A stretch of DNA of 34,637 nucleotides from Nitrospinota bacterium (GCA_036339675.1 JAYZAN010000084.1:1-34637); one strand, 5' to 3'. Shown: positions 5,576 to 34,637, numbered from the stretch's first letter. Notes: generated by a model not told the origin, from the letters alone. Program-made: numbers and translations.

Positions 5576-6346
5576 TTATCCTTTCTTCTTGGCTACCTCT
5601 GCCGCATGGGCCTTTGCCCGTTTCAGCATGGCGGCCCTTTCTTCCGGAGTGAACGTGCGCTTGGGAGTAGCCGGTTTGTCGACAGCAGGTTTGGCGGCGG
5701 TTTTGCCGGCAACCGGTTTAGCGGCGGGTTTCGCCTTGCCGTTCGCCGTGTCGGCGTTGGCTTCAGCAGGTGCGGCCTCTTCTTCGACCGGTTCGGTCCC
5801 GACAGGAGGCGGTGGCGGCTCTCCTTCTATACGTACCAGCCGCATGGACGACCAGACATCTTGGGTCGGGTAAGGCGTGTCCACACCTATTTTGAAATCC
5901 ATGCGGATGATTTTTTCATCACTGCATTCGCTGATCCAGGTGTTGGATGCCCCGCCGGGAGCGAAGATCGGATCCAGGGGATACCCCGTTCCGTTCTTAT
6001 CCATCAGGATCTTGGTCTTGGTTTTATCGAACAGGGTGAGCGACTCCTTCTTGTTCGGGATTCTCCAGTTATCGAAACCGCCGAACTTATCCTTGTTCTG
6101 GTTGACCCAGTCCACATACTCCCGGTGCGTCTGCCAGGGATAGAATTTTTTCATATCCAGCCAGGCATCGGTTTTTTTCCAGGTCAGATTGGAATTGGGA
6201 TCGAAGATGGTTCCGTCGCCGTTATCCACCAAGGGTTTGGCGGCGGGAGCTTCCTTCTTGGGGGGCGCCTTGGCCGCGGGCTTTTCCACGCCTTCAGCCG
6301 GTTTGGCAGACTCTTTCTCTGGTGATGCGGACGGATTTTCGCTCAT
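5576..6346 (-). CDS. DUF1566 (Lcl C-terminal domain) protein with lysine/alanine/proline-rich, histone-H1-like N- and C-terminal tails. No signal peptide.
   Basis: Core DNGDGTIFDPNSNLTWKK...NWRIPNKKESLTL matches the DUF1566 signature (NGDGT..D..TGL.W / WRLPT..EL). Tails include KPAAKAPPKKEAPAAKP and KPAAKPVAGKTAAKPAVDKPATPK. Confidence 0.7.
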   Translation of the reverse strand: MSENPSASPEKESAKPAEGVEKPAAKAPPKKEAPAAKPLVDNGDGTIFDPNSNLTWKKTDAWLDMKKFYPWQTHREYVDWVNQNKDKFGGFDNWRIPNKKESLTLFDKTKTKILMDKNGTGYPLDPIFAPGGASNTWISECSDEKIIRMDFKIGVDTPYPTQDVWSSMRLVRIEGEPPPPPVGTEPVEEEAAPAEANADTANGKAKPAAKPVAGKTAAKPAVDKPATPKRTFTPEERAAMLKRAKAHAAEVAKKKG

Positions 6347-24227: not shown

Positions 24228-26180
24228 ATGCCACAGACAGACAAAAAGTTTTTTCTGACAACGCCCATCTATTATGTCAACGACGTCCCGCACATCGGGC
24301 ACGCCTATACGACGATAGCGGGGGATATCTTGGCACGGTACAAACGGCTGGACGGTTATGAGGTTTTTTTTCTAACTGGAACCGACGAGCACGGCCAAAA
24401 GGTTCAACATGCAGCGAAGGAGATGGGCGTGGAACCGCAGACCCATGTCGACAACCTCCATCAACGGTTCAAGGAACTGTGGGTCCGGCTGGAAATCTCC
24501 AACAGCGACTTCATCCGAACCACAGAAGAACGGCATAAACTAGTCGTCCGGGATATCCTGAACCGGCTTCACGAAAAAGGCGAAATCTATAAAGACAGTT
24601 ACGAGGGATGGTACTGCATGCCCGACGAACGGTTCTGGACGGAGAAGGACCTGGTCAACGGCAATTGCCCCGAGTGCGGGCGCAAGGTCGAAAAAATTCA
24701 GGAGCACAATTATTTTTTCAAGATGGGACAGCACGGTGAGTGGCTGGCCCGGTATATCCGTGACCACGAACACTTCATCCAGCCCGCATCCCGGCGCAAC
24801 GAGGTTCTGGGATTTCTGGGAAAACCGCTGGGCGACCTGTGCATCTCCAGGCCGAAGGAACGCCTGCCCTGGGGAATCCCCCTGCCCTTCGATGAAGATT
24901 ATGTCACCTATGTCTGGTTCGACGCTTTGATCAACTATGTTTCCACCTTCGGCACCATTGAACAGATCAAGGAGTGCGGTTTCTGGCCCGCCGACCATCA
25001 CCTGGTCGGGAAAGATATTCTGACAACCCATGCGGTGTACTGGTCCACCATGCTGCGCGCGGTAGGTTTGGAACCGGCAAAAGATATATTCGCTCACGGC
25101 TGGTGGACAGTGAACGGACAGAAAATGTCCAAATCGTTAAGAAACGTCGTCGAACCCAATTTATTGATCGATCAGTTCGGCGCCGACGCCATCCGTTATT
25201 TCCTGATGCGGGAAGTTCCCTTCGGGCTGGACGGGGACTTTTCCCACAAGGCCCTCATCGGAAGGATCAACAGCGACCTGGCCAACAACCTGGGTAATCT
25301 TCTCAACCGCACCCTGAATATGATGAAACGGTATCACGACAAGGTGATACCGGAACCCGCGGACCGGGAAGAAGACAAACCGCTCAAAGAAGAGTTTCAC
25401 AAAGGGATCCCTGAAATTCGGAAGTTGTACGAGGAACTGGCCTACAACAAAATTCTGGAAAAAATCTGGAAACTGGTGGACGCCACAAACCAGTTCATCG
25501 ACAAGAGCGGGCCCTGGAACCTGGTTAAGACCGAAGAGGGGAAAATCCGTCTCACCACCGTCATGTACAACTCGGCCGAATGCCTGCGAACGCTCGCGGT
25601 CCTGATCTACCCGTTCATGCCTTCCACCGCAGGAAAAATAATGGAACAACTCGGTGTCGAAACCCCCGTGGAAAAACAGGGAATGGATTCGATCGGCGCC
25701 TGGGGATGGATCAAGCCCGGAACACAAGTGAACCCCGGAGCACAACTGTTCCCGCGTATCGAAGACAAAGAGATTAAAAAGATCCACGCCGCGGTCGAAT
25801 CGACGGGTAAAACGGAAAAAACTTCAACGGATTCCCAAGGAAACGGCGCCTCTTCCGAGCAGATCAGCATCGACGATTTCATGAAAGTCGATCTGAGGAC
25901 CGGCCAGATCGTCGAAGCGGAAAAGGTCAGGAAATCGAAAAAACTCATCCAGCTGAAGGTGGATATCGGAGGGGAAGTCCGGCAGGTGGTCGCCGGGATC
26001 GCCGAGGGGTATGAGCCGGAAACACTGGTCGGGCGCACGGTGATCCTCGTCGCCAACCTGAAACCCGCCAAACTGATGGGGATCGAATCCCAGGGCATGA
26101 TCCTGGCCGCCAGCGGCGACGATAAGATCATCCTCGCGGGATTCGACCAGGAACCCGGAAAAGGAACCCGAGTGCGATGA
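24228..26180 (+). CDS. metG: Methionyl-tRNA synthetase with a C-terminal EMAP-II-like tRNA-binding domain.
   Basis: 650 aa. HIGH motif (VPHIGHAYTT), KMSKS, a zinc knuckle CPECGRKV, and a C-terminal OB-fold domain (DLRTGQIVEAEKV...IQLKVDIGGE). Confidence 0.95.
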   Translation: MPQTDKKFFLTTPIYYVNDVPHIGHAYTTIAGDILARYKRLDGYEVFFLTGTDEHGQKVQHAAKEMGVEPQTHVDNLHQRFKELWVRLEISNSDFIRTTEERHKLVVRDILNRLHEKGEIYKDSYEGWYCMPDERFWTEKDLVNGNCPECGRKVEKIQEHNYFFKMGQHGEWLARYIRDHEHFIQPASRRNEVLGFLGKPLGDLCISRPKERLPWGIPLPFDEDYVTYVWFDALINYVSTFGTIEQIKECGFWPADHHLVGKDILTTHAVYWSTMLRAVGLEPAKDIFAHGWWTVNGQKMSKSLRNVVEPNLLIDQFGADAIRYFLMREVPFGLDGDFSHKALIGRINSDLANNLGNLLNRTLNMMKRYHDKVIPEPADREEDKPLKEEFHKGIPEIRKLYEELAYNKILEKIWKLVDATNQFIDKSGPWNLVKTEEGKIRLTTVMYNSAECLRTLAVLIYPFMPSTAGKIMEQLGVETPVEKQGMDSIGAWGWIKPGTQVNPGAQLFPRIEDKEIKKIHAAVESTGKTEKTSTDSQGNGASSEQISIDDFMKVDLRTGQIVEAEKVRKSKKLIQLKVDIGGEVRQVVAGIAEGYEPETLVGRTVILVANLKPAKLMGIESQGMILAASGDDKIILAGFDQEPGKGTRVR

Positions 26181-27568
26181 TCATCGATACCCATGCCCAT
26201 CTCGATATGGATGCCTTTGACGAAGACCGTTCCAAGGTCATCGAACGCGCCATGGAGCAGGGGGTTCAATATATCATCAACGTGGGCTGCGATGTGGAAA
26301 GCAGCAACCGGTCCCTGGAGCTTGCCGAGCGATACGACTTCATCTATGCCACCGCCGGGGTGCACCCGCATGATGTGAAATCGGCCAACGGGTCCACATA
26401 CGACACTCTGAGGGAACTTCTTCATCATCCCAAAATGATCGCGGTCGGTGAAACGGGCCTGGATTTTTTTAAAAACTACTCGCCCCAGCAGGACCAGCGG
26501 GATCATTTTCGAAAACAAATCGAACTCGCCAAAGAATGCGATAAACCCCTCATTATTCACAGCCGGGACGCCAAGGAGGATATCATTAGCATTCTCCAGG
26601 ATTACTACCCCGCCGACCCCGATGCGCGGTCGGGAATCTTCCATTGCTTTTCAGGAGATCAAGAACTGGCGGACAAGGCCCTGGAGATGGGGTTTTATAT
26701 TTCCTTTTCCGGTTCCGTCACGTTCAAGAAAGCCCAAGACCTGAGGGAGGTCGCCAAGACCATCCCTGCAGACCGGCTGTTCGTTGAAACCGATTGCCCT
26801 TTTCTGGCACCCGTTCCCAAAAGAGGCAAACGCAACGAACCTTCCTATGTCAACCACACGGCAGAAAAAATCGCCGAAGTGCGGGGTTTATCCATCGAAG
26901 ATGTTCGGCGCACCACCGAACTCAATTTCTTTGAATTGTTCGGGATCGGCACCAACGCGAAAACGGGAACGATCTCTTATAAGATCCGCAACTCTCTGTA
27001 CCTGAACCTGACCAACCGGTGCACGGCCAATTGCGTATTCTGCACGCGCCTGACACGTCCGGTTGTTCAGGGATACGACCTCAAACTGGACCGCGAACCC
27101 ACCGCCGAGGAAATCTGGCAGTCCATTGACGACCCGAATAAATATAAAGAGGTGGTTTTCTGCGGATACGGGGAACCCACTCTCCGTCTCAACGTGATCA
27201 AGGAAGTAGCTAGAAAGATCAAAGATGCCGGAGGCCGTGTGCGGCTCAACACCAACGGACACGGAAACATCATCAACAAGCGCAACATTCTTCCCGAGCT
27301 TCAAGGCCTGATCGATGAGGTTTCCGTCAGCCTCAATGCGGACACCTCGGAAGCTTACGACGAAGTCGTCCAACCCCTTCCGATGTTCCAGAACGGGGTC
27401 TATGACAAAGTTCGTGAGTTTATTTTAGAGTCCAAGAAATACATTCCCGCCGTCCAGGCCACCATCGTCACGCATCAAAAAGAAGTGGACGAGGCGAAAT
27501 GCGAAAACATCGCCAAGGACGAGTTCGAGGTCAACTACCGTCAACGGCGATATAATATCGTTGGTTAA
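26177..27568 (+). CDS. TatD-family metal-dependent hydrolase fused to a C-terminal radical-SAM domain (TatD-associated radical SAM type).
   Basis: N-terminal roughly 255 aa are TatD (IIDTHAHLD...GVHPHD...HSRDA...FHCFSG...ETDCPFL). C-terminal roughly 200 aa contain LTNRCTANCVFCTR (C-x3-C-x2-C), the radical-SAM cluster-binding motif. Start overlaps the metG stop (ATGA). Confidence 0.8.
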   Translation: MIIDTHAHLDMDAFDEDRSKVIERAMEQGVQYIINVGCDVESSNRSLELAERYDFIYATAGVHPHDVKSANGSTYDTLRELLHHPKMIAVGETGLDFFKNYSPQQDQRDHFRKQIELAKECDKPLIIHSRDAKEDIISILQDYYPADPDARSGIFHCFSGDQELADKALEMGFYISFSGSVTFKKAQDLREVAKTIPADRLFVETDCPFLAPVPKRGKRNEPSYVNHTAEKIAEVRGLSIEDVRRTTELNFFELFGIGTNAKTGTISYKIRNSLYLNLTNRCTANCVFCTRLTRPVVQGYDLKLDREPTAEEIWQSIDDPNKYKEVVFCGYGEPTLRLNVIKEVARKIKDAGGRVRLNTNGHGNIINKRNILPELQGLIDEVSVSLNADTSEAYDEVVQPLPMFQNGVYDKVREFILESKKYIPAVQATIVTHQKEVDEAKCENIAKDEFEVNYRQRRYNIVG

Positions 27569-28722: not shown

Positions 28723-29580
28723 TCAAATAGCGGAATAACCATCAAGAGAACATTTTTTTCTTTTCCAATATCGGTAACAGAGGAAAGTTCCAAAAGCCAA
28801 AATGAGGACCAAATGCAGGGCCAGGTTCTTAACGGTCCAATATTTCTGGAACGTGACGTCCCCGCGGACCTCTCCGGTATAATGTTTGAGCATTTCCGCG
28901 TACTCGATCATCAAATGTACGGGATAGGTTTCCGACTCGCTGTCGGAAAGTTTGCGAACCGACACCTCAAACCGTTTTTCCTCTCCCGCCAGCAGAGTGA
29001 ACCCCATCATCCCCTGAAACTTTTCGGCGATCAAGCCGGGAGGCAGAAGGAGCATCAGCCGGACATTCTTGAAGGATGAAGAGGTATTGAGCAACCATAC
29101 CTTGAGAAGAGAAACCCCCTCCTCCGCGACGGAATCGATTTTACCTTCTATGGTCGACTCGACCGGATCGTTGTAATAAAACGAATCGGTATGGATCTGC
29201 GAAAGGTATTTCCCGCTTTGTTTATCTTTCTGGTATTGCACCATGGCCACCAGAGGATAGCGCCCGTCCCGCGCCACGGGAGGATGATCGGTGTTTTCCA
29301 TTGTGATCCCCTGCCCCGGTTCCAGGCGCATGATTTTCGGCATCATTGCCATGGTATGGTGAAAATGAAACATGGGGTGTACATTGTAGAGAGGTTCTCG
29401 GGACGGGTTCTTCAGGGAAAGTAGAATGCGAACGGTCCCGTTTTCGGCCACGATGGTTTCGGTGGACACCTCCAGCGGGCGCTCCGCGGCAAAAACTGGA
29501 TAGGAAACGCCGGAACAAATCAACACCACCATCAAAACCAATAGCGAACGGCAAAGTTCAAGTAGGGAACACATAAACAA
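28723..29580 (-). CDS. Hypothetical bitopic envelope protein: N-terminal signal peptide, beta-rich ectodomain, C-terminal TM anchor and basic tail. Transcribed divergently from the SPFH operon.
   Basis: 285 aa. N-terminus LLVLMVVLICSGVSYPVFAAE (signal-like). Beta-strand-rich middle (TVRILLSLKNPSREPLYNV; VSLLKVWLLNTSSSFKNVRLMLLLPPG; KRFEVSVRKL). C-terminal LALHLVLILAFGTFLCYRYWKRKK. The topology is like BatD-type or CARDB-like envelope proteins. Confidence 0.55.
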   Translation of the reverse strand: MFMCSLLELCRSLLVLMVVLICSGVSYPVFAAERPLEVSTETIVAENGTVRILLSLKNPSREPLYNVHPMFHFHHTMAMMPKIMRLEPGQGITMENTDHPPVARDGRYPLVAMVQYQKDKQSGKYLSQIHTDSFYYNDPVESTIEGKIDSVAEEGVSLLKVWLLNTSSSFKNVRLMLLLPPGLIAEKFQGMMGFTLLAGEEKRFEVSVRKLSDSESETYPVHLMIEYAEMLKHYTGEVRGDVTFQKYWTVKNLALHLVLILAFGTFLCYRYWKRKKCSLDGYSAI

Positions 29581-29610
29581 ATTGTATCATAGCCGCTAGC
29601 CGAGGGGACA

Positions 29611-29640
29611 GCCAGCCACGCTGGCCCCCGGGCGTGGCCC
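29611..29640. repeat. Two adjacent GC-rich inverted repeats: GCCAGC-CAC-GCTGGC (29611-29625), and CCCCGGGCGTGGCCC (29626-29640), which is the reverse complement of the 15-mer at 10896-10910.
   Basis: Perfect 6-bp stem with a CAC loop, the same architecture as 10894-10908. Exact 15-nt reverse-complement match. Located in the 164-bp divergent intergenic region. Confidence 0.4.
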
Positions 29641-29744
29641 AGTCGGCCCGGGTGGGATTTACCGGGAAAAAACTGGTACCATTGTCGATGGGCGGAAAAA
29701 AACTTTAACTTTTCAGATCCAGCGTCACGCTGGCAGGAGGTTGT

Positions 29745-30509
29745 ATGGACGCAGTGCTTATCGGTCTGGTTGTTCTAGCTGTCTTGTTGTTCAGCGCGTT
29801 CAATATTCTCCGCGAATATGAACGCGGGGTGATATTCCTTCTCGGCCGTTTCTGGAAGGTCAAGGGGCCGGGCCTGATCATCGTCATTCCCGGGATCCAG
29901 AAAATGATCAAGGTCAGCCTGCGGACTGTGGTTATGGACGTCCCCCCACAGGACATCATCACCAAGGATAACGTAACGGTCAAGGTGAATGCCGTTATTT
30001 ATTTTCGGGTGGTTGACTCGAGACGGGCCATCATTGAGGTGGAAGACTATCTGTATGCCACCTCCCAGTTGTCGCAAACCACATTAAGAAGCATCCTAGG
30101 GCAAAGCCAGCTGGACGACCTTTTGTCCAAGCGGGATGAGATCAACTTGCACCTGCAAAAAGTCATTGATGAACAGACTGAACCCTGGGGAATCAAGGTC
30201 GCCAATGTCGAGGTCAAAAACGTCGATCTTCCGCAGGAGATGCAGAGGGCTCTGGCGAAACAAGCGGAAGCGGAGCGGGAACGGCGAGCGAAAGTCATCA
30301 ACGCCCAGGGAGAATTCGAAGCGGCCGAAAGGCTGGGTGATGCGGCGGACCGGATCGGGGCCCATCCCCCCGCTTTACAGTTGAGGTTTTTGCAAACGCT
30401 GCTGGATATATCAACGGACAGGAACACGACCACCTTTGTCCCTATCCCCATCGAATTGTTTAACGCTTTTCTTAAAAACAAACCAAATCCCGGGGATCAA
30501 AATCCCTGA
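29745..30509 (+). CDS. SPFH/Band-7 (stomatin/prohibitin-like) membrane protein.
   Basis: 254 aa. N-terminal TM helix, the characteristic start [16 protein letters not shown], the [22 protein letters not shown] block, and a C-terminal coiled-coil [31 protein letters not shown]. Confidence 0.85.
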
Positions 30510-30601
30510 TCGGGAACCTGACCTGTCTGCCTGACCTCAAAGTAACCAATCGAAACTTTGATCCTGGCCCTGAGTGTGTTGTAATAGATAGTGAAGCATC
30601 T

Positions 30602-33600
30602 ATGGACGGATCCCCCCTCATGGAGCCAAAAACCTTCATCGATCAATTTCTCCATCGGGTCCGGCAGGAACGCTCCCGAACTTTTTTGCGCCAGGGGGTC
30701 TATCTCCTCCTGGCGGTCTTGTCAGGGGGCTATCTTCTGGCCAACCTTTGGTTCTATTATTTTCCGCACATCAACAACTTCGGCGAGGTATTTCTACTCT
30801 TGATCGTCTCGGCGGTCGGTGTTTTGATTTACATCTGTTTTATAAAAGGGGCGTTTGCAAAATTCTCGCCGGATCAGGCTGCCCTTTTGACTGAAGCAAA
30901 GTATCCTCAACTGCAGAATTCCCTGATCAACGCCAATCAGTTAAAGCGTCATCTGGATGACCCGGATAACGATAAAAGGACCTCCTTGTTCTTCATCCGG
31001 GAGTTGCTGGGGCAAACCGTCTCTCTCATCCGGGATATAGAACCTGAATCCGTCATAGACAAGAGCCAGACGGTCCGAGCCCGAAGAATTTTATTGGGCA
31101 CGCTGGGCTCCCTGATTTTGGTATCCCTGGTTCTTCCGGACTTCCTCCCCCGTGGGCATGAAAACTGGACCCGGCCCTCAATCCGGGAGAGTCTCACTGC
31201 ATCTTCCGTTCCCGGAGAAAAAAAATGGATGCCTGCATCGTTACAGAACCCGTATTCAATCGAGGAACTTTGGCTGACCTTCAATTACCCCGCTTACACC
31301 CAATTAAAGAGCGAAACCTTACATCCCTCGGACGGGGAAGTCAGGGTTCTGCCCGGAACCGAGGTCCGGATAACGGCCAAAACCAATCTTCCTGTAGAGG
31401 GAGCTGAACTTGTCCTCAACAACCTGGATCATTTTTCTATGCAGAAACAGGAGGGAAACCGGATCAAGGGCAGGTTCATCGTAAAAGAAAAAGGGGTTTA
31501 CCAGTTTCAGATTAAAGAGGCGTCCGGGGATAAATTTTTGCTGGCGACAAAATACCCGATCCACCTGAACAAAGACAATTCTCCCAGCATCATTTTGTTA
31601 CTGGCCAACCCGAAACCCGTATATTTTGAAACCGATAAGGTTCAGTTTTTCTATGAAGGCAGTGACGATTTCGGCATTTCCCGGATCGACCTATTCGCGC
31701 AAGTAAACGGCAAAACCATTCGTAAGGAAATCAAACAACCGAAAAGCACCGAAAAAGTCATCAAAGATGGGTACACATGGAATCTCAACCTGATGCTTTT
31801 AAACCCCGGGGACCAGGTCCAGTATTACCTGGAGATACGCGACAACGACAATTTATTCGGCCCGAACACCGGTCACTCGGAAACCTTTTCGTTCACCGTT
31901 TTCGATTCCAGGAAGGAACGGGAAAACCTGATCTTTCTCCAGGAGGAGTTGATGGAAAAAATGATTGCCCTTTTGGGAAACAACCTGGTGCGAAACGCAG
32001 TCCTTTTGGAATCCCCATCCGATCCGATGAGCTGGAAACAGCTGTTCTCGTCCAACACGGATGCGCTGATCGACATCATCAATCAGGCCCAGCGCATCAA
32101 GGACCGCGCGGAATCGATCGACCGTTTTCCGCAGCCCTATTTCAATTTGCTGAACAACCTCATTTCGAGCCTGACCCGTATTCGCGAAGATCAAATTGAT
32201 GAAACCACCAAAATTCAAAACACGGTCCAAAAACCCACTCAGGCGGAATACAATATCGAACAGGCTTCCCTAACCAGCAATAAACTGATCCTGAACCTGG
32301 AACAGAACATTCTATACCTGATCAAAATGACCAACCGTCAGAAAATGGACCAGGTGATGGACCTAGAGAAGCGTCTGTCCGAACTCACGGAATCGTTGAG
32401 GGAGGAGTTTGAAAAAATCAAAGATAAAAAGAGCGTTCCACGCCCCCTGGAATTGAAAGCGAAAATTGAACAGATGCAGCAGACATTGCAGAAAATCATG
32501 GAGCAGTTGGCGAGCCAGTCCCAGAGTCTGCCCGATGAATTTCTCAATTCCAACGCTTTCAAATCCATGAACCTGCAGAATTTCAACGCGGCCCTCGAGA
32601 AGCTGAAGAACCTCGCGGCTCAGGGAAAGTTTGAAGAAGCCCTGGAGGAATTGAAAAAACTGGCCGACGACCTAAAATCCCTCGCCAATCAGCTGGACCA
32701 GCAGAACCATCAGTTGGACGAGCTCATAGACACGGAGCTCATGGAGCAACTGGAGGAAACCTCGAAGAAACTGGACCGCCTCGAGAAAGACCAGAAAGCT
32801 TTGGTCGGAGACACCACCCGTCTCAACCAGTCCATGAGAACTCGCCAATCCAAAAAATTCGAGGCTGAAATAAAAAATCTTTTTAAGGAACTACTGAAAG
32901 ACGTCAACCAAATTCAGGACATTTTTCAAGAAGACGAAAAATACCTGGACAACCATCCGGTCATGCAGACCTTGAAAGAATTGACGGAGAAAGAAATCAA
33001 GCTCAACGAGAGAATTCAGGATATGAGGCAGAAGACCGTAGAGCCCAGCCTCAGTGAAGGCCTGGAAGCGAATTTCAGGGCTTTGAACAAATCCCGCAGG
33101 GAATTGACCCGCCTTTTGAAGGAAAAAGATTCCCTGCGCGTCAAAGAATTCCAAAAGTATCTGGAATCCCTTCCCAACGTGAATGAGAAATACCGCAATC
33201 TGGAAGAGTTGGCCGAACTGAGGGACCTGAACGAGTTCAACCATCTATTCAAGAACACCTATCCCGAGACTTTCCGCCTGCAAAACAACCTGAGAACGAC
33301 GCCCAACCGCCGGGAAGACCTGGCGGATCGAGTGGACAGCGATCTTCGGGAAGTGACCCGGCTGAACGGGGAAATCTCGAAGAAACTAGGCTCAACGATG
33401 CGGGAACTCAGGGACAACTACCCGTCCATGCTCACCCAGAAAGACCGTTCCCAGCTCACGGAAATGGCCCGCCGGCAAAATCAGATGGAAGGCGAGTCCA
33501 GAGACCTGTCCGAGCAGTTTTCAGAAATGAACCAGCAGAACCCGACCATCTCCCCCGACCTATCAAAAGGAATGTCCCGGGCCGGCAACCTCATGAAACA

Positions 33601-33955
33601 GGCTGAGAACGATTTAAATGGCCAGGATGTCCAGGGAGGGGTGGAATCGGAAAACCGGGCCCTGCAGCAGATCAGGAAAACGCGCGATTTGCTGGATGAA
33701 ATCAAAAACACCAACAATCAGATGCAGAGAAACGCGCAGCGGAAAACACCCCTGAAGCTGGGAACGGGAAGCGCCCGCGACCCCAGACGGGGAGGCTCGG
33801 TCCGAATGCAGAGGGAAAGGGTACTTCTCCCCACGGAAGACCAATACAAAGTGCCGACCGAGTTCAGGGAGGAAATCCTAGATGCCATGAAACGGCAGAC
33901 ACCTAAAAATTACGAGCGGATGGTCGGCGAATACTATAAGGAACTGGTGAAATGA
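30602..33955 (+). CDS. Giant (1117 aa) membrane-anchored coiled-coil protein of unknown function.
   Basis: Two N-terminal TM helices (VYLLLAVLSGGYLLANLWFYYF; VFLLLIVSAVGVLIYICFI), a third hydrophobic segment (ILLGTLGSLILVSLVL), a roughly 250-aa beta-rich region, then roughly 650 aa of E/K/L/Q/N-rich heptad-like sequence, and a C-terminal segment ...YKVPTEFREEILDAMKRQTPKNYERMVGEYYKELVK. No catalytic motif seen. Confidence 0.8.
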   Translation: MDGSPLMEPKTFIDQFLHRVRQERSRTFLRQGVYLLLAVLSGGYLLANLWFYYFPHINNFGEVFLLLIVSAVGVLIYICFIKGAFAKFSPDQAALLTEAKYPQLQNSLINANQLKRHLDDPDNDKRTSLFFIRELLGQTVSLIRDIEPESVIDKSQTVRARRILLGTLGSLILVSLVLPDFLPRGHENWTRPSIRESLTASSVPGEKKWMPASLQNPYSIEELWLTFNYPAYTQLKSETLHPSDGEVRVLPGTEVRITAKTNLPVEGAELVLNNLDHFSMQKQEGNRIKGRFIVKEKGVYQFQIKEASGDKFLLATKYPIHLNKDNSPSIILLLANPKPVYFETDKVQFFYEGSDDFGISRIDLFAQVNGKTIRKEIKQPKSTEKVIKDGYTWNLNLMLLNPGDQVQYYLEIRDNDNLFGPNTGHSETFSFTVFDSRKERENLIFLQEELMEKMIALLGNNLVRNAVLLESPSDPMSWKQLFSSNTDALIDIINQAQRIKDRAESIDRFPQPYFNLLNNLISSLTRIREDQIDETTKIQNTVQKPTQAEYNIEQASLTSNKLILNLEQNILYLIKMTNRQKMDQVMDLEKRLSELTESLREEFEKIKDKKSVPRPLELKAKIEQMQQTLQKIMEQLASQSQSLPDEFLNSNAFKSMNLQNFNAALEKLKNLAAQGKFEEALEELKKLADDLKSLANQLDQQNHQLDELIDTELMEQLEETSKKLDRLEKDQKALVGDTTRLNQSMRTRQSKKFEAEIKNLFKELLKDVNQIQDIFQEDEKYLDNHPVMQTLKELTEKEIKLNERIQDMRQKTVEPSLSEGLEANFRALNKSRRELTRLLKEKDSLRVKEFQKYLESLPNVNEKYRNLEELAELRDLNEFNHLFKNTYPETFRLQNNLRTTPNRREDLADRVDSDLREVTRLNGEISKKLGSTMRELRDNYPSMLTQKDRSQLTEMARRQNQMEGESRDLSEQFSEMNQQNPTISPDLSKGMSRAGNLMKQAENDLNGQDVQGGVESENRALQQIRKTRDLLDEIKNTNNQMQRNAQRKTPLKLGTGSARDPRRGGSVRMQRERVLLPTEDQYKVPTEFREEILDAMKRQTPKNYERMVGEYYKELVK

Positions 33956-34637
33956 GACCCCTTTATCTATCAGTAAGGGTCCTGATCCTTTTAACGGTTA
34001 TGGTACTCCCATTCGGAGCCAGGGCCGAGATATCGATGGGGCCCGATGAAATATTCGATGGTCACAAGCTTATCGAAGATTGGGATATCGCCGAGGCGGA
34101 ACGGCTGACTCTAAGACTCCTGGAAAATTATCCCGAATCCGGGGACGCCCATTTCCTCAACGCGCGGGTCCAGTTCATGACGGGCCATTACGATTTCGCC
34201 TGGAACATCCTGAAACAGGTCGAGGACTCTCACCGGTCCGTGAAGGAATTTAAAACCCTCGCAAAAAACACCCGCGAGGCCACCAGGAATTTTATCTCCC
34301 AAGAATCGAAACATTTTATTTTCCTGTTCGAGGAGGGGCCCGATGAAATCCTGGCCCACTACGCCGAACAGGCCCTGGAAAAATCTTACACGGTTCTTGG
34401 AAAACTACTGAATTACTATCCGGAAGAAAAAGTCCGGGTCGAAATCTATCCCGACCGCAAAAAATTTTCCCGGATTTCCCCTTTGACCTTGAAAGACATC
34501 GTGACCTCCGGAACCGTCGCTTTATGCAAATACCACCGGATCATGATGATCTCTCCGGGATCTTTAATTCGGGGCTATAACTGGCTGGACACCCTCAGCC
34601 ATGAATACACCCATTATCTCCTCACCAAGAAAAGCCA
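33952..34637 (+). CDS. Secreted zinc metallopeptidase candidate (HExxH), translationally coupled to the giant protein. The gene continues past the window edge.
   Basis: ATG at 33952-33954 overlaps the upstream TGA (ATGA). Hand translation gives MRPLYLSVRVLILLTVMVLPFGARAE (signal peptide) ... and the frame is open to the edge, with LSHEYTHYLL (HExxH) at residues about 220-226. Confidence 0.6.
   Translation, partial: MRPLYLSVRVLILLTVMVLPFGARAEISMGPDEIFDGHKLIEDWDIAEAERLTLRLLENYPESGDAHFLNARVQFMTGHYDFAWNILKQVEDSHRSVKEFKTLAKNTREATRNFISQESKHFIFLFEEGPDEILAHYAEQALEKSYTVLGKLLNYYPEEKVRVEIYPDRKKFSRISPLTLKDIVTSGTVALCKYHRIMMISPGSLIRGYNWLDTLSHEYTHYLLTKKS

Follow-up and report, generated by a model that had tools for sequence, protein, structure and literature searches.

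Introduction

Bat-like and cmdA–cmdD operons encode a MoxR ATPase together with DUF58 proteins and von Willebrand factor A (vWA)/transmembrane (TM) proteins (PMC5700661; bioRxiv 10.1101/551135). Operons of the MoxR/DUF58/BatA type are very widespread, and envelope, stress, and virulence phenotypes are associated with them in Bacteroides, Rhizobium, spirochaetes, and others (PMC5700661). In Rhizobium leguminosarum, cmd mutants show envelope and morphology defects, and there is a genetic interaction with the periplasmic tetratricopeptide repeat (TPR) protein TtpA; no definite molecular function has been established for the Bat/Cmd systems (PMC5700661; bioRxiv 10.1101/551135). Here, we analyze a locus from a Nitrospinota bacterium that lies at the end of a 34,637-nt contig of a metagenome-assembled genome (MAG; JAYZAN010000084.1). 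This contig, referred to as the window, ends inside its last gene. The two genes at the center of this study encode a 1117-amino-acid (aa) protein, referred to as the giant, and a protein with an HExxH motif, referred to as the peptidase.

The locus and its relatives resemble the Bat-like and cmdA–cmdD (RL3499–RL3502) operons in that a MoxR (AAA_3) protein is encoded beside large envelope-anchored proteins. In some relatives the operon continues into genes for DUF58 and BatA_N+vWA proteins, and the last gene of a MoxR-DUF58-BatA operon in Gemmatirosa encodes a DUF4175-like giant. TPR proteins are also part of, or genetically linked to, the known systems (BatC/BatE; TtpA with cmd). In contrast to those systems, the Nitrospinota version is without an adjacent DUF58/vWA gene, and its gene order is giant-peptidase-MoxR rather than MoxR-DUF58-BatA-giant. 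It also couples a gluzincin to the giant, for which no counterpart is described in PMC5700661 or bioRxiv 10.1101/551135.

The original prediction for this region was of an SPFH protein, a giant scaffold, and an HExxH peptidase that together form a co-conserved module. The four open reading frames (ORFs) that it named between 28723 and 34637 were all recovered with the same boundaries in an ORF check of the window. The unit that we consider reasonably probable is a different one: a DUF4175 inner-membrane protein and a translationally coupled, secreted Peptidase_MA_2/TPR protein, with a MoxR gene next in Nitrospinota. The locus would then be a peptidase-containing variant of the known MoxR/Bat/Cmd envelope operons. 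The component families are already catalogued, and this operon class is itself known, with its mechanism unsolved. A literature search found no description of a DUF4175–Peptidase_MA_2 pairing; four papers mention DUF4175, none of them in this connection. As far as could be found, neither the cross-phylum DUF4175–Peptidase_MA_2/TPR pair nor the giant-peptidase-MoxR trio has been described.

Results and Discussion

A DUF4175 Protein Is Translationally Coupled to a Peptidase_MA_2 Protein

The giant had not been assigned to a recognizable family by eye. Its score against Pfam DUF4175 (PF13779) lies above the gathering cut-off (50.2 bits versus 27.3, E-value 1.5e-13, profile positions 189–688 of 825), and a precomputed PF13779 annotation is found on most of its homologues. 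The protein itself is 100% identical to the NCBI hypothetical protein VX667_04780 [Nitrospinota bacterium]. A profile built from 19 Nitrospinota homologues retrieved 7705 relatives (cluster representatives) at E < 1e-3 and 824 50%-identity clusters at E < 1e-30; most of these relatives are 1000–1150 aa long and match end to end. Five motifs are found family-wide, namely YPxYTG, DDFG, LExxDNDxxSGPK, PDEFLN, and the C-terminal (V/I)PxxFRxEILxAMK...P..Y......YY..L. Proteins of Pfam DUF4175 and of the alphaproteobacterial family TIGR02302 have the same general build, with TM helices at the N-terminus and, after them, a long helical region of low complexity. They differ from the subfamily of ~1000–1150 aa described here, which is distinguished by its own motifs (YPxYTG, DDFG, DNDxxSGPK, PDEFLN, and C-terminal FRxEILxAMK...YY). 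The giant gives no match to NCBIfam TIGR02302 (aProt_lowcomp; cut-off 394 bits), and its distant relatives match that model weakly (20 bits, E-value 1e-4). No sequence relative of the giant was found in the PDB.

The stop codon of the giant and the start codon of the peptidase share the sequence ATGA (GAAATGAGAC). The identical 4-nt overlap is present in the related loci L001 and L081, which bears out the coupling that had been proposed for these two genes. The giant and the HExxH protein are thus a genuine translationally coupled pair. The peptidase ORF runs off the contig, finishing ...LSHEYTHYLLTKKS, and the end falls 14 codons past the start of the HEYTH motif. NCBI places the start of this gene (P0270, 212 aa) 16 codons downstream of the ATGA-overlapping ATG (34000 versus 33952). 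Like the orthologues, the longer form begins with a normal signal peptide, MRPLYLSVRVLILLTVMVLPFGARA/E, which is lost with the NCBI start, and hydropathy analysis finds an N-terminal hydrophobic, signal-like segment. The start that agrees with the L001 and L081 orthologues is the longer one, which is probably correct.

The fragment encoded in the window shares 71% identity with the full-length 521-aa orthologue of L081 and 60% with the 522-aa orthologue of L001. It is the N-terminal 228 aa of a predicted secreted Peptidase_MA_2 + TPR protein of ~521 aa. The L001 orthologue matches Pfam Peptidase_MA_2 (PF13485) with an E-value of 1.2e-15 (58.3 bits versus a cut-off of 32.4) and carries C-terminal TPRs, and the peptidase of locus L140 also scores above the PF13485 threshold. 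The window fragment alone, which is cut at the motif, yields only TPR-like Pfam matches.

The Pair Is Conserved in at Least Five Phyla

Conservation of the pair was examined in both directions. In the forward test, 78 giant loci from one-genome-per-species contigs were analyzed by a six-frame search with seed proteins, and counts were limited to the 67 loci with at least 1.5 kb of sequence downstream of the giant. Of these 67 loci, 60 have a peptidase gene on the same strand downstream of the giant, 52 of them within 300 bp. The short spacing is found in all seven Nitrospinota loci, in all 16 loci from Myxococcota/'delta', and in 29 of the 40 from Brocadiia/Planctomycetota, where 34 carry the peptidase somewhere in the locus. 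The single Elusimicrobia locus and both loci from 'Clostridia' MAGs have the peptidase at a greater distance (gaps of 1.3–5.3 kb), and the one locus from an unclassified bacterium has none. The two gaps that were annotated contain insertions, of cobalt energy-coupling factor (ECF) transporter genes in L062 (Elusimicrobia) and of an IS200 transposase in L002 (Planctomycetota); the gap of L059 ('Clostridia') contains a GMP synthase-like ORF. Outside Nitrospinota, the peptidase orthologues are recovered by phmmer at 1e-75 to 1e-117.

The reciprocal test began from the peptidase in metagenome contigs. The giant is directly upstream in 43 of 43 Nitrospinota-like loci and upstream in 17 of 23 distant loci. 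Across at least five phyla (Nitrospinota, Brocadiia/Planctomycetota, Myxococcota, Elusimicrobia, and 'Clostridia' MAGs), the two genes have stayed linked.

A separate observation concerns the one locus examined among the peptidases without an upstream giant (L140, 499–7509), in which three tandem genes for GT2 glycosyltransferase-TPR fusions precede the peptidase and a MacB/FtsX-type permease gene follows it. A MacB-like permease gene also follows the DUF4175-like gene of Gemmatirosa (L080, 12018–14699).

A MoxR ATPase Follows the Pair in Nitrospinota

The gene order in L001 and L081 is that of a 27x-aa protein (minus strand), a Band_7 stomatin, the giant, the Peptidase_MA_2+TPR protein with its 4-nt overlap, and a MoxR (AAA_3) protein. 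The AAA_3 match in L001 has an E-value of 4.7e-63, and MoxR is likewise present in L081 and in L103, a 311-kb Nitrospina contig. Among Nitrospinota-like metagenome loci, MoxR is directly downstream of the peptidase in 44 of 45. In L001, the genes after MoxR encode a small DUF8220 protein, a DCC1-like protein, and an HTTM protein.

MoxR recurs beside the pair in distant lineages, where it is joined by its usual partners. It is found with the pair within the flank of 6 of 15 Myxococcota loci. Locus L047 has the order giant-peptidase-MoxR-DUF58 (3.8e-49)-BatA_N+VWA (4.4e-17), and L064, L069, L070, and L076 share the ORF clusters that follow MoxR in L047. DUF58 and BatA-vWA genes thus follow MoxR in some Myxococcota and in one Planctomycetota locus. 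The Gemmatirosa operon has the order DUF4159-MoxR-DUF58-BatA_N+VWA+GATase1_like-DUF4175-like (1268 aa) and no peptidase; its DUF4175-like protein aligns with the Nitrospinota giant profile over the beta-sandwich region by hhalign (probability 99.1%, E-value 4.4e-19). A 737–754-aa VWA+GATase1_like protein is encoded upstream of the giant in L062 (981–9581) and L059 (163–2424), directly so in L059. The context in L047, Gemmatirosa, and these VWA loci indicates that the giant family belongs to MoxR/DUF58/BatA (Bat/Cmd-type) operons. In L062, three tandem genes for TMEM260-like (protein O-mannosyltransferase-like) proteins with TPRs lie between the VWA+GATase1_like gene and the giant, which hints at a link between the envelope module and protein glycosylation in the Elusimicrobia/'Clostridia' lineages.

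Several points weigh against reading the locus as a pair within a MoxR operon. In this MAG, the gene after the peptidase lies past the contig end at 34637, and MoxR is known from relatives only. No DUF58/vWA gene adjoins MoxR in the Nitrospinota loci L001, L081, and L103, which is atypical for MoxR. MoxR occurs within 10 kb of the pair in only 1 of 33 Brocadiia/Planctomycetota loci and is thus not obligatory in cis, and 6 of the 23 distant peptidase loci are without an upstream giant. The physical link between giant and peptidase is predicted from adjacency and translational coupling, and the topology of the giant from hydropathy and charge bias. A literature search found no biochemically characterized member of Peptidase_MA_2. 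The R. leguminosarum cmd operon may itself contain a DUF4175 homologue (cmdD).

Some of these points suit an alternative in which the pair is a self-contained, MoxR-independent periplasmic protease/anchoring system, with the MoxR adjacency of Nitrospinota and some Myxococcota being secondary and the Bat/Cmd analogy leading astray. No other unit is as widely conserved as the pair by itself, and the sparse occurrence of MoxR in the Brocadiia/Planctomycetota and Myxococcota flanks and the missing DUF58/vWA neighbor in Nitrospinota agree with such independence. What makes this explanation improbable is the near-constant position of MoxR next to the pair in Nitrospinota-like loci and its return, with DUF58 and BatA, in distant phyla. 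Moreover, the peptidase-less giant of Gemmatirosa still ends a MoxR-DUF58-BatA operon. The distant recurrence and the Gemmatirosa operon together indicate that the giant family itself is tied to MoxR systems.

The Stomatin Is a Lineage-Specific Neighbor

The 254-aa protein encoded upstream of the giant had been called stomatin-like and is a true stomatin. It matches Band_7 (PF01145) with an E-value of 4.9e-37 (128 bits versus a cut-off of 23.6), PH1511 in the PDB with 9.5e-65, human stomatin with ~2e-64 (2.3e-64), and QmcA with 3.5e-36. Pairings of SPFH proteins with proteases are a well-established theme. The presence of a stomatin gene beside membrane-protein and protease-like genes recalls the stomatin-NfeD (PH1511–PH1510; QmcA–YbbJ) and HflK/C–FtsH pairs, and the original prediction placed the metallopeptidase and the scaffold in the partner position of the SPFH protein. 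In line with its remark, a Pfam scan of the window ORFs detected neither NfeD nor FtsH, and no NfeD occurs among the Pfam-matched neighbors of the stomatin in the window, L001, or L081. One explanation is that a stomatin microdomain cage organizes the giant scaffold and the metallopeptidase in Nitrospinota, with the metallopeptidase replacing NfeD/FtsH. In its favor, the stomatin gene is directly upstream of the giant on the same strand in the window, L001, L081, L051–L057, and 20 of the 26 metagenomic Nitrospinota-like loci whose contigs reach far enough upstream; only 92 bp separate the two genes, with no terminator-like site detected between them.

The association fails outside Nitrospinota and is incomplete inside. 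No SPFH gene was found within 10 kb of the giant in ~70 loci of other phyla. The remaining 6 of the 26 Nitrospinota-like loci are without both the stomatin and the 285-aa gene found upstream of it in the window, and giant-peptidase-MoxR is intact in them. One of the six, the Nitrospina contig L103, has the order OEP (minus strand), giant, peptidase, MoxR, and no SPFH gene. The conserved order in Nitrospinota also takes in unrelated upstream housekeeping genes: L001 carries those of the window (metG and tatD are annotated in both), and DUF423 is found in five loci, including three further Nitrospinota. Adjacency within Nitrospinota is consequently weak evidence of function. The stomatin is 86% identical to that of L001, as compared with 52% for the giant, which fits an independent housekeeping role. 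The two proteins are also predicted to face different compartments. The stomatin has a short N-terminus free of charge, and R/K residues come after its single TM helix; its SPFH domain is therefore predicted to be cytoplasmic, like QmcA/PH1511, whereas the peptidase is a secreted gluzincin predicted, with the bulk of the giant, on the opposite, periplasmic side of the membrane.

These data indicate that the trio is a stable unit and that the stomatin and 285-aa genes are movable neighbors. A co-conserved module of SPFH protein, giant, and HExxH protein is not what the comparison recovers, and the partner of the pair is the MoxR AAA+ ATPase encoded, in relatives, just past the position where the window ends, rather than the stomatin. 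The microdomain explanation is accordingly doubtful; it is possible that the stomatin is a Nitrospinota-specific add-on to the unit.

Architecture of the Giant and the Peptidase

Coordinates of all features are collected in Table 1. The AlphaFold2 model of the giant (mean predicted local distance difference test score (pLDDT) 79, predicted template modeling score (pTM) 0.44) runs from a TM hairpin through a small helical domain, TM3, a disordered linker, two beta-sandwiches, helices, and a disordered Gly/Arg-rich stretch to two short C-terminal helices. Hydropathy analysis finds three hydrophobic helices, at the upper end of the two to three N-terminal TM helices originally predicted, and the beta-rich ectodomain of that prediction corresponds to the two beta-sandwich domains of the model. 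The roughly 650-aa coiled coil is not seen. In its place are ~20 helices with loop breaks, an arrangement more in keeping with helical hairpins or bundles than with a single uninterrupted coiled coil. The domain between TM2 and TM3 contains the motif AALLxExKYPxLNNSLINAxQL, one of the best-conserved stretches in Nitrospinota and recognizable in distant relatives. YPxYTG, DDFG, and LExxDNDxxSGPK all fall within the beta-sandwich region, and PDEFLN (residues 644–649) lies inside the helical region. The C-terminus is modeled with low confidence at residues 1043–1084 and as helices at 1086–1116. Foldseek searches against the PDB returned only generic tandem-Ig matches (Fab, ICAM; E-value ~1e-4) and no specific match for the helical region. 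The presence of six K/R residues within the N-terminal 32 suggests that the N-terminus is cytoplasmic. In the resulting topology, residues 85–160 would be cytoplasmic, and the ~930 residues after TM3 would be periplasmic.

Table 1. Features of the locus in the window, and positions of MoxR genes in related loci
Feature	Position	Strand	Basis and remarks
DUF4175-family inner-membrane protein (giant), 1117 aa	30602..33955	+	Pfam PF13779, 1.5e-13; core component 1
TM hairpin of giant (TM1 33-55, TM2 62-84)	30698..30853	+	hydropathy; AlphaFold2 helices 9-53 and 55-85
Small conserved helical domain, giant residues 85-160	30854..31081	+	AlphaFold2 helices 90-151; predicted cytoplasmic (positive-inside rule)
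TM3 of giant, residues 161-185	31082..31156	+	hydropathy; AlphaFold2 helix 155-177
Two tandem immunoglobulin (Ig)-like beta-sandwich domains, giant residues 220-322 and 329-434	31259..31903	+	AlphaFold2 strands; predicted periplasmic
Long all-helical region, giant residues 436-1047	31907..33742	+	AlphaFold2, ~20 helices of 22-56 residues; rich in L/E/Q/N/K
C-terminal motif (V/I)P..FR.EIL.AMK...P..Y......YY..L	33797..33952	+	kept in 24/24 diverse family members; disordered Gly/Arg-rich linker before motif
Peptidase_MA_2 + TPR protein, N-terminal 228 aa	33952..34637	+	cut by contig end; core component 2
HEYTH zinc-binding/catalytic motif of peptidase	34600..34614	+	sequence read
Stomatin-type SPFH protein, 254 aa	29745..30509	+	Band_7, 4.9e-37; lineage-specific neighbor, not core
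Divergent intergenic region, 164 bp	29581..29744		between 285-aa gene and stomatin gene
285-aa envelope protein	28723..29580	-	signal/TM helix, two beta-sandwich domains, C-terminal TM helix, conserved His cluster; separable neighbor
MoxR (AAA_3) after peptidase, L001	14951-16307
MoxR (AAA_3) after peptidase, L081	6846-7832
MoxR (AAA_3) after peptidase, L103	7507-8496

The HExxH ORF had been proposed to encode a peptidase, and its orthologues have a gluzincin-type signature. In L081, the sequence around the motif reads ...HEYTHYLLTKKSRNRLPLWMHEGIAKY. Across several phyla, ~60 orthologues share the pattern HExxH-x16-W[LMF][HQN]EG[LI]AK. The third zinc ligand, the lack of which had been suggested as a sign of a nonpeptidase, is the E of WMHEG, which follows the second His by 16 residues; it occurs in L081 and L001 as well as in the ~60 orthologues, and falls beyond the window end here. 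The protein shares with other Peptidase_MA_2 (PF13485) TPR proteins the HExxH motif and the downstream Glu in a WxxEG context. It differs from them in that this orthologue group pairs with a DUF4175 protein and has an N-terminal TPR-like segment in addition to C-terminal TPRs. Conservation of the motif suggests that the protein is catalytically active. Pseudoenzymes usually lose at least one of their catalytic or ligand residues, and it is very unlikely that the protein is a noncatalytic TPR/peptidase-fold adaptor that binds a peptide or cell-wall ligand, with the giant as a structural periplasmic spacer, since the HExxH, catalytic Glu, and downstream Glu are kept in essentially all ~60 orthologues from at least five phyla, even though TPR segments flank the peptidase domain on both sides, the residue before the third ligand varies (H/Q/N) across phyla, and the literature search yielded no Peptidase_MA_2 member with demonstrated activity.

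A defense-system reading of the locus found no support in a search with PADLOC defense models, including MoxR-vWA conflict systems, which returned only marginal TPR/AAA matches (5.8e-6 and 6.3e-5).

Divergent Envelope Protein and Other Neighboring Genes

The 285-aa gene has a TTG start, and an alternative ATG at 29532 would give a 269-aa form as in its database relatives. Hydropathy analysis and a structure model (pLDDT 87) agree with the envelope topology originally predicted for it: the chain starts with a hydrophobic signal/TM helix, forms two beta-sandwich domains, and ends in a TM helix. No Pfam family was found for this protein, and its structural neighbors are generic. It is specific to Nitrospinota as far as the 120 matches listed show: the named sources of its relatives are Nitrospinota-type except for one Marinimicrobia-labeled MAG. 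Its His cluster comprises HPMFHFHH at 68–75, HPP at 99–101, and invariant or near-invariant His at 130, 222, and 233, which suggests a periplasmic metal-binding protein (Cu, Ni, or Zn?). In L103, the homologue lies ~13 kb from the trio, beside transglutaminase-like, PpiC rotamase, and MsrA genes and still near metG-tatD-DUF423, with no stomatin beside it. The 285-aa gene is therefore separable from the unit. The intergenic region between it and the stomatin gene gave no Rfam match and no promoter-like or terminator-like match; over all the sequence scanned, such sites were no more numerous than in shuffled sequence.

The rest of the window is occupied by housekeeping genes (F1Fo ATP synthase, holB, PSP1, metG, a TatD-radical S-adenosylmethionine (SAM) fusion, and DUF423). 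The fusion is a 463-aa ORF (26177–27568, plus strand) in which a TatD-type DNase/hydrolase domain (2.1e-92) is joined to a C-terminal radical SAM domain (3.6e-15). It also occurs in L001 and L162 and is thus conserved in Nitrospinota rather than an assembly artifact. A 256-aa ORF away from the module (5576–6346, minus strand) contains an Lcl C-terminal domain (PF07603, 3.3e-11).

Proposed Function and Implications

Our analysis allows a working model for the DUF4175–Peptidase_MA_2 unit in its MoxR context. The giant would be a membrane-anchored periplasmic platform, built from the TM hairpin, the cytoplasmic helical domain, TM3, and a ~930-residue periplasmic part in which the Ig-like sandwiches are nearest the membrane, followed by the segmented helices and the C-terminal motif. 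In the peptidase, the signal peptide would be followed by an N-terminal TPR-like segment, then by the gluzincin domain with its HExxH motif and downstream Glu, and finally by the C-terminal TPRs. The giant probably docks and positions this TPR-metallopeptidase, and translational coupling could fix the ratio of the two proteins. The cytoplasmic MoxR ATPase may assemble or remodel the complex, perhaps via the cytoplasmic domain of the giant; in loci that encode DUF58 and BatA-type vWA partners, it could instead work through them. A role of the unit in cell-envelope maintenance is proposed by analogy with the Bat/Cmd operons. The stomatin and 285-aa genes in Nitrospinota are perhaps co-transcribed or co-opted, and perhaps not.

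A stronger version of this model seems to us a long shot. It holds that the giant, the gluzincin, and MoxR are an undescribed trans-envelope machine, in which the cytoplasmic AAA+ ATPase switches or positions the periplasmic metallopeptidase via the cytoplasmic domain of the giant, with the stomatin maybe recruited in Nitrospinota. If true, it would constitute a new coupling of ATP to periplasmic proteolysis or envelope remodeling and would provide a mechanism for Bat/Cmd-type MoxR operons.

The adjacency of the stomatin is best regarded as a lineage-specific gene order and not as a conserved SPFH-protease system, which corrects a tempting over-interpretation. The finding is that a large DUF4175 subfamily has a conserved, secreted zinc-peptidase-like TPR protein as its partner in five phyla or more, and that in some lineages MoxR, DUF58, and BatA are added to the pair. 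Its carriers include biogeochemically important nitrite oxidizers (Nitrospinota) and anammox bacteria. With a predicted enzyme that has a clear active site, the pair offers a concrete, testable handle on MoxR operons.

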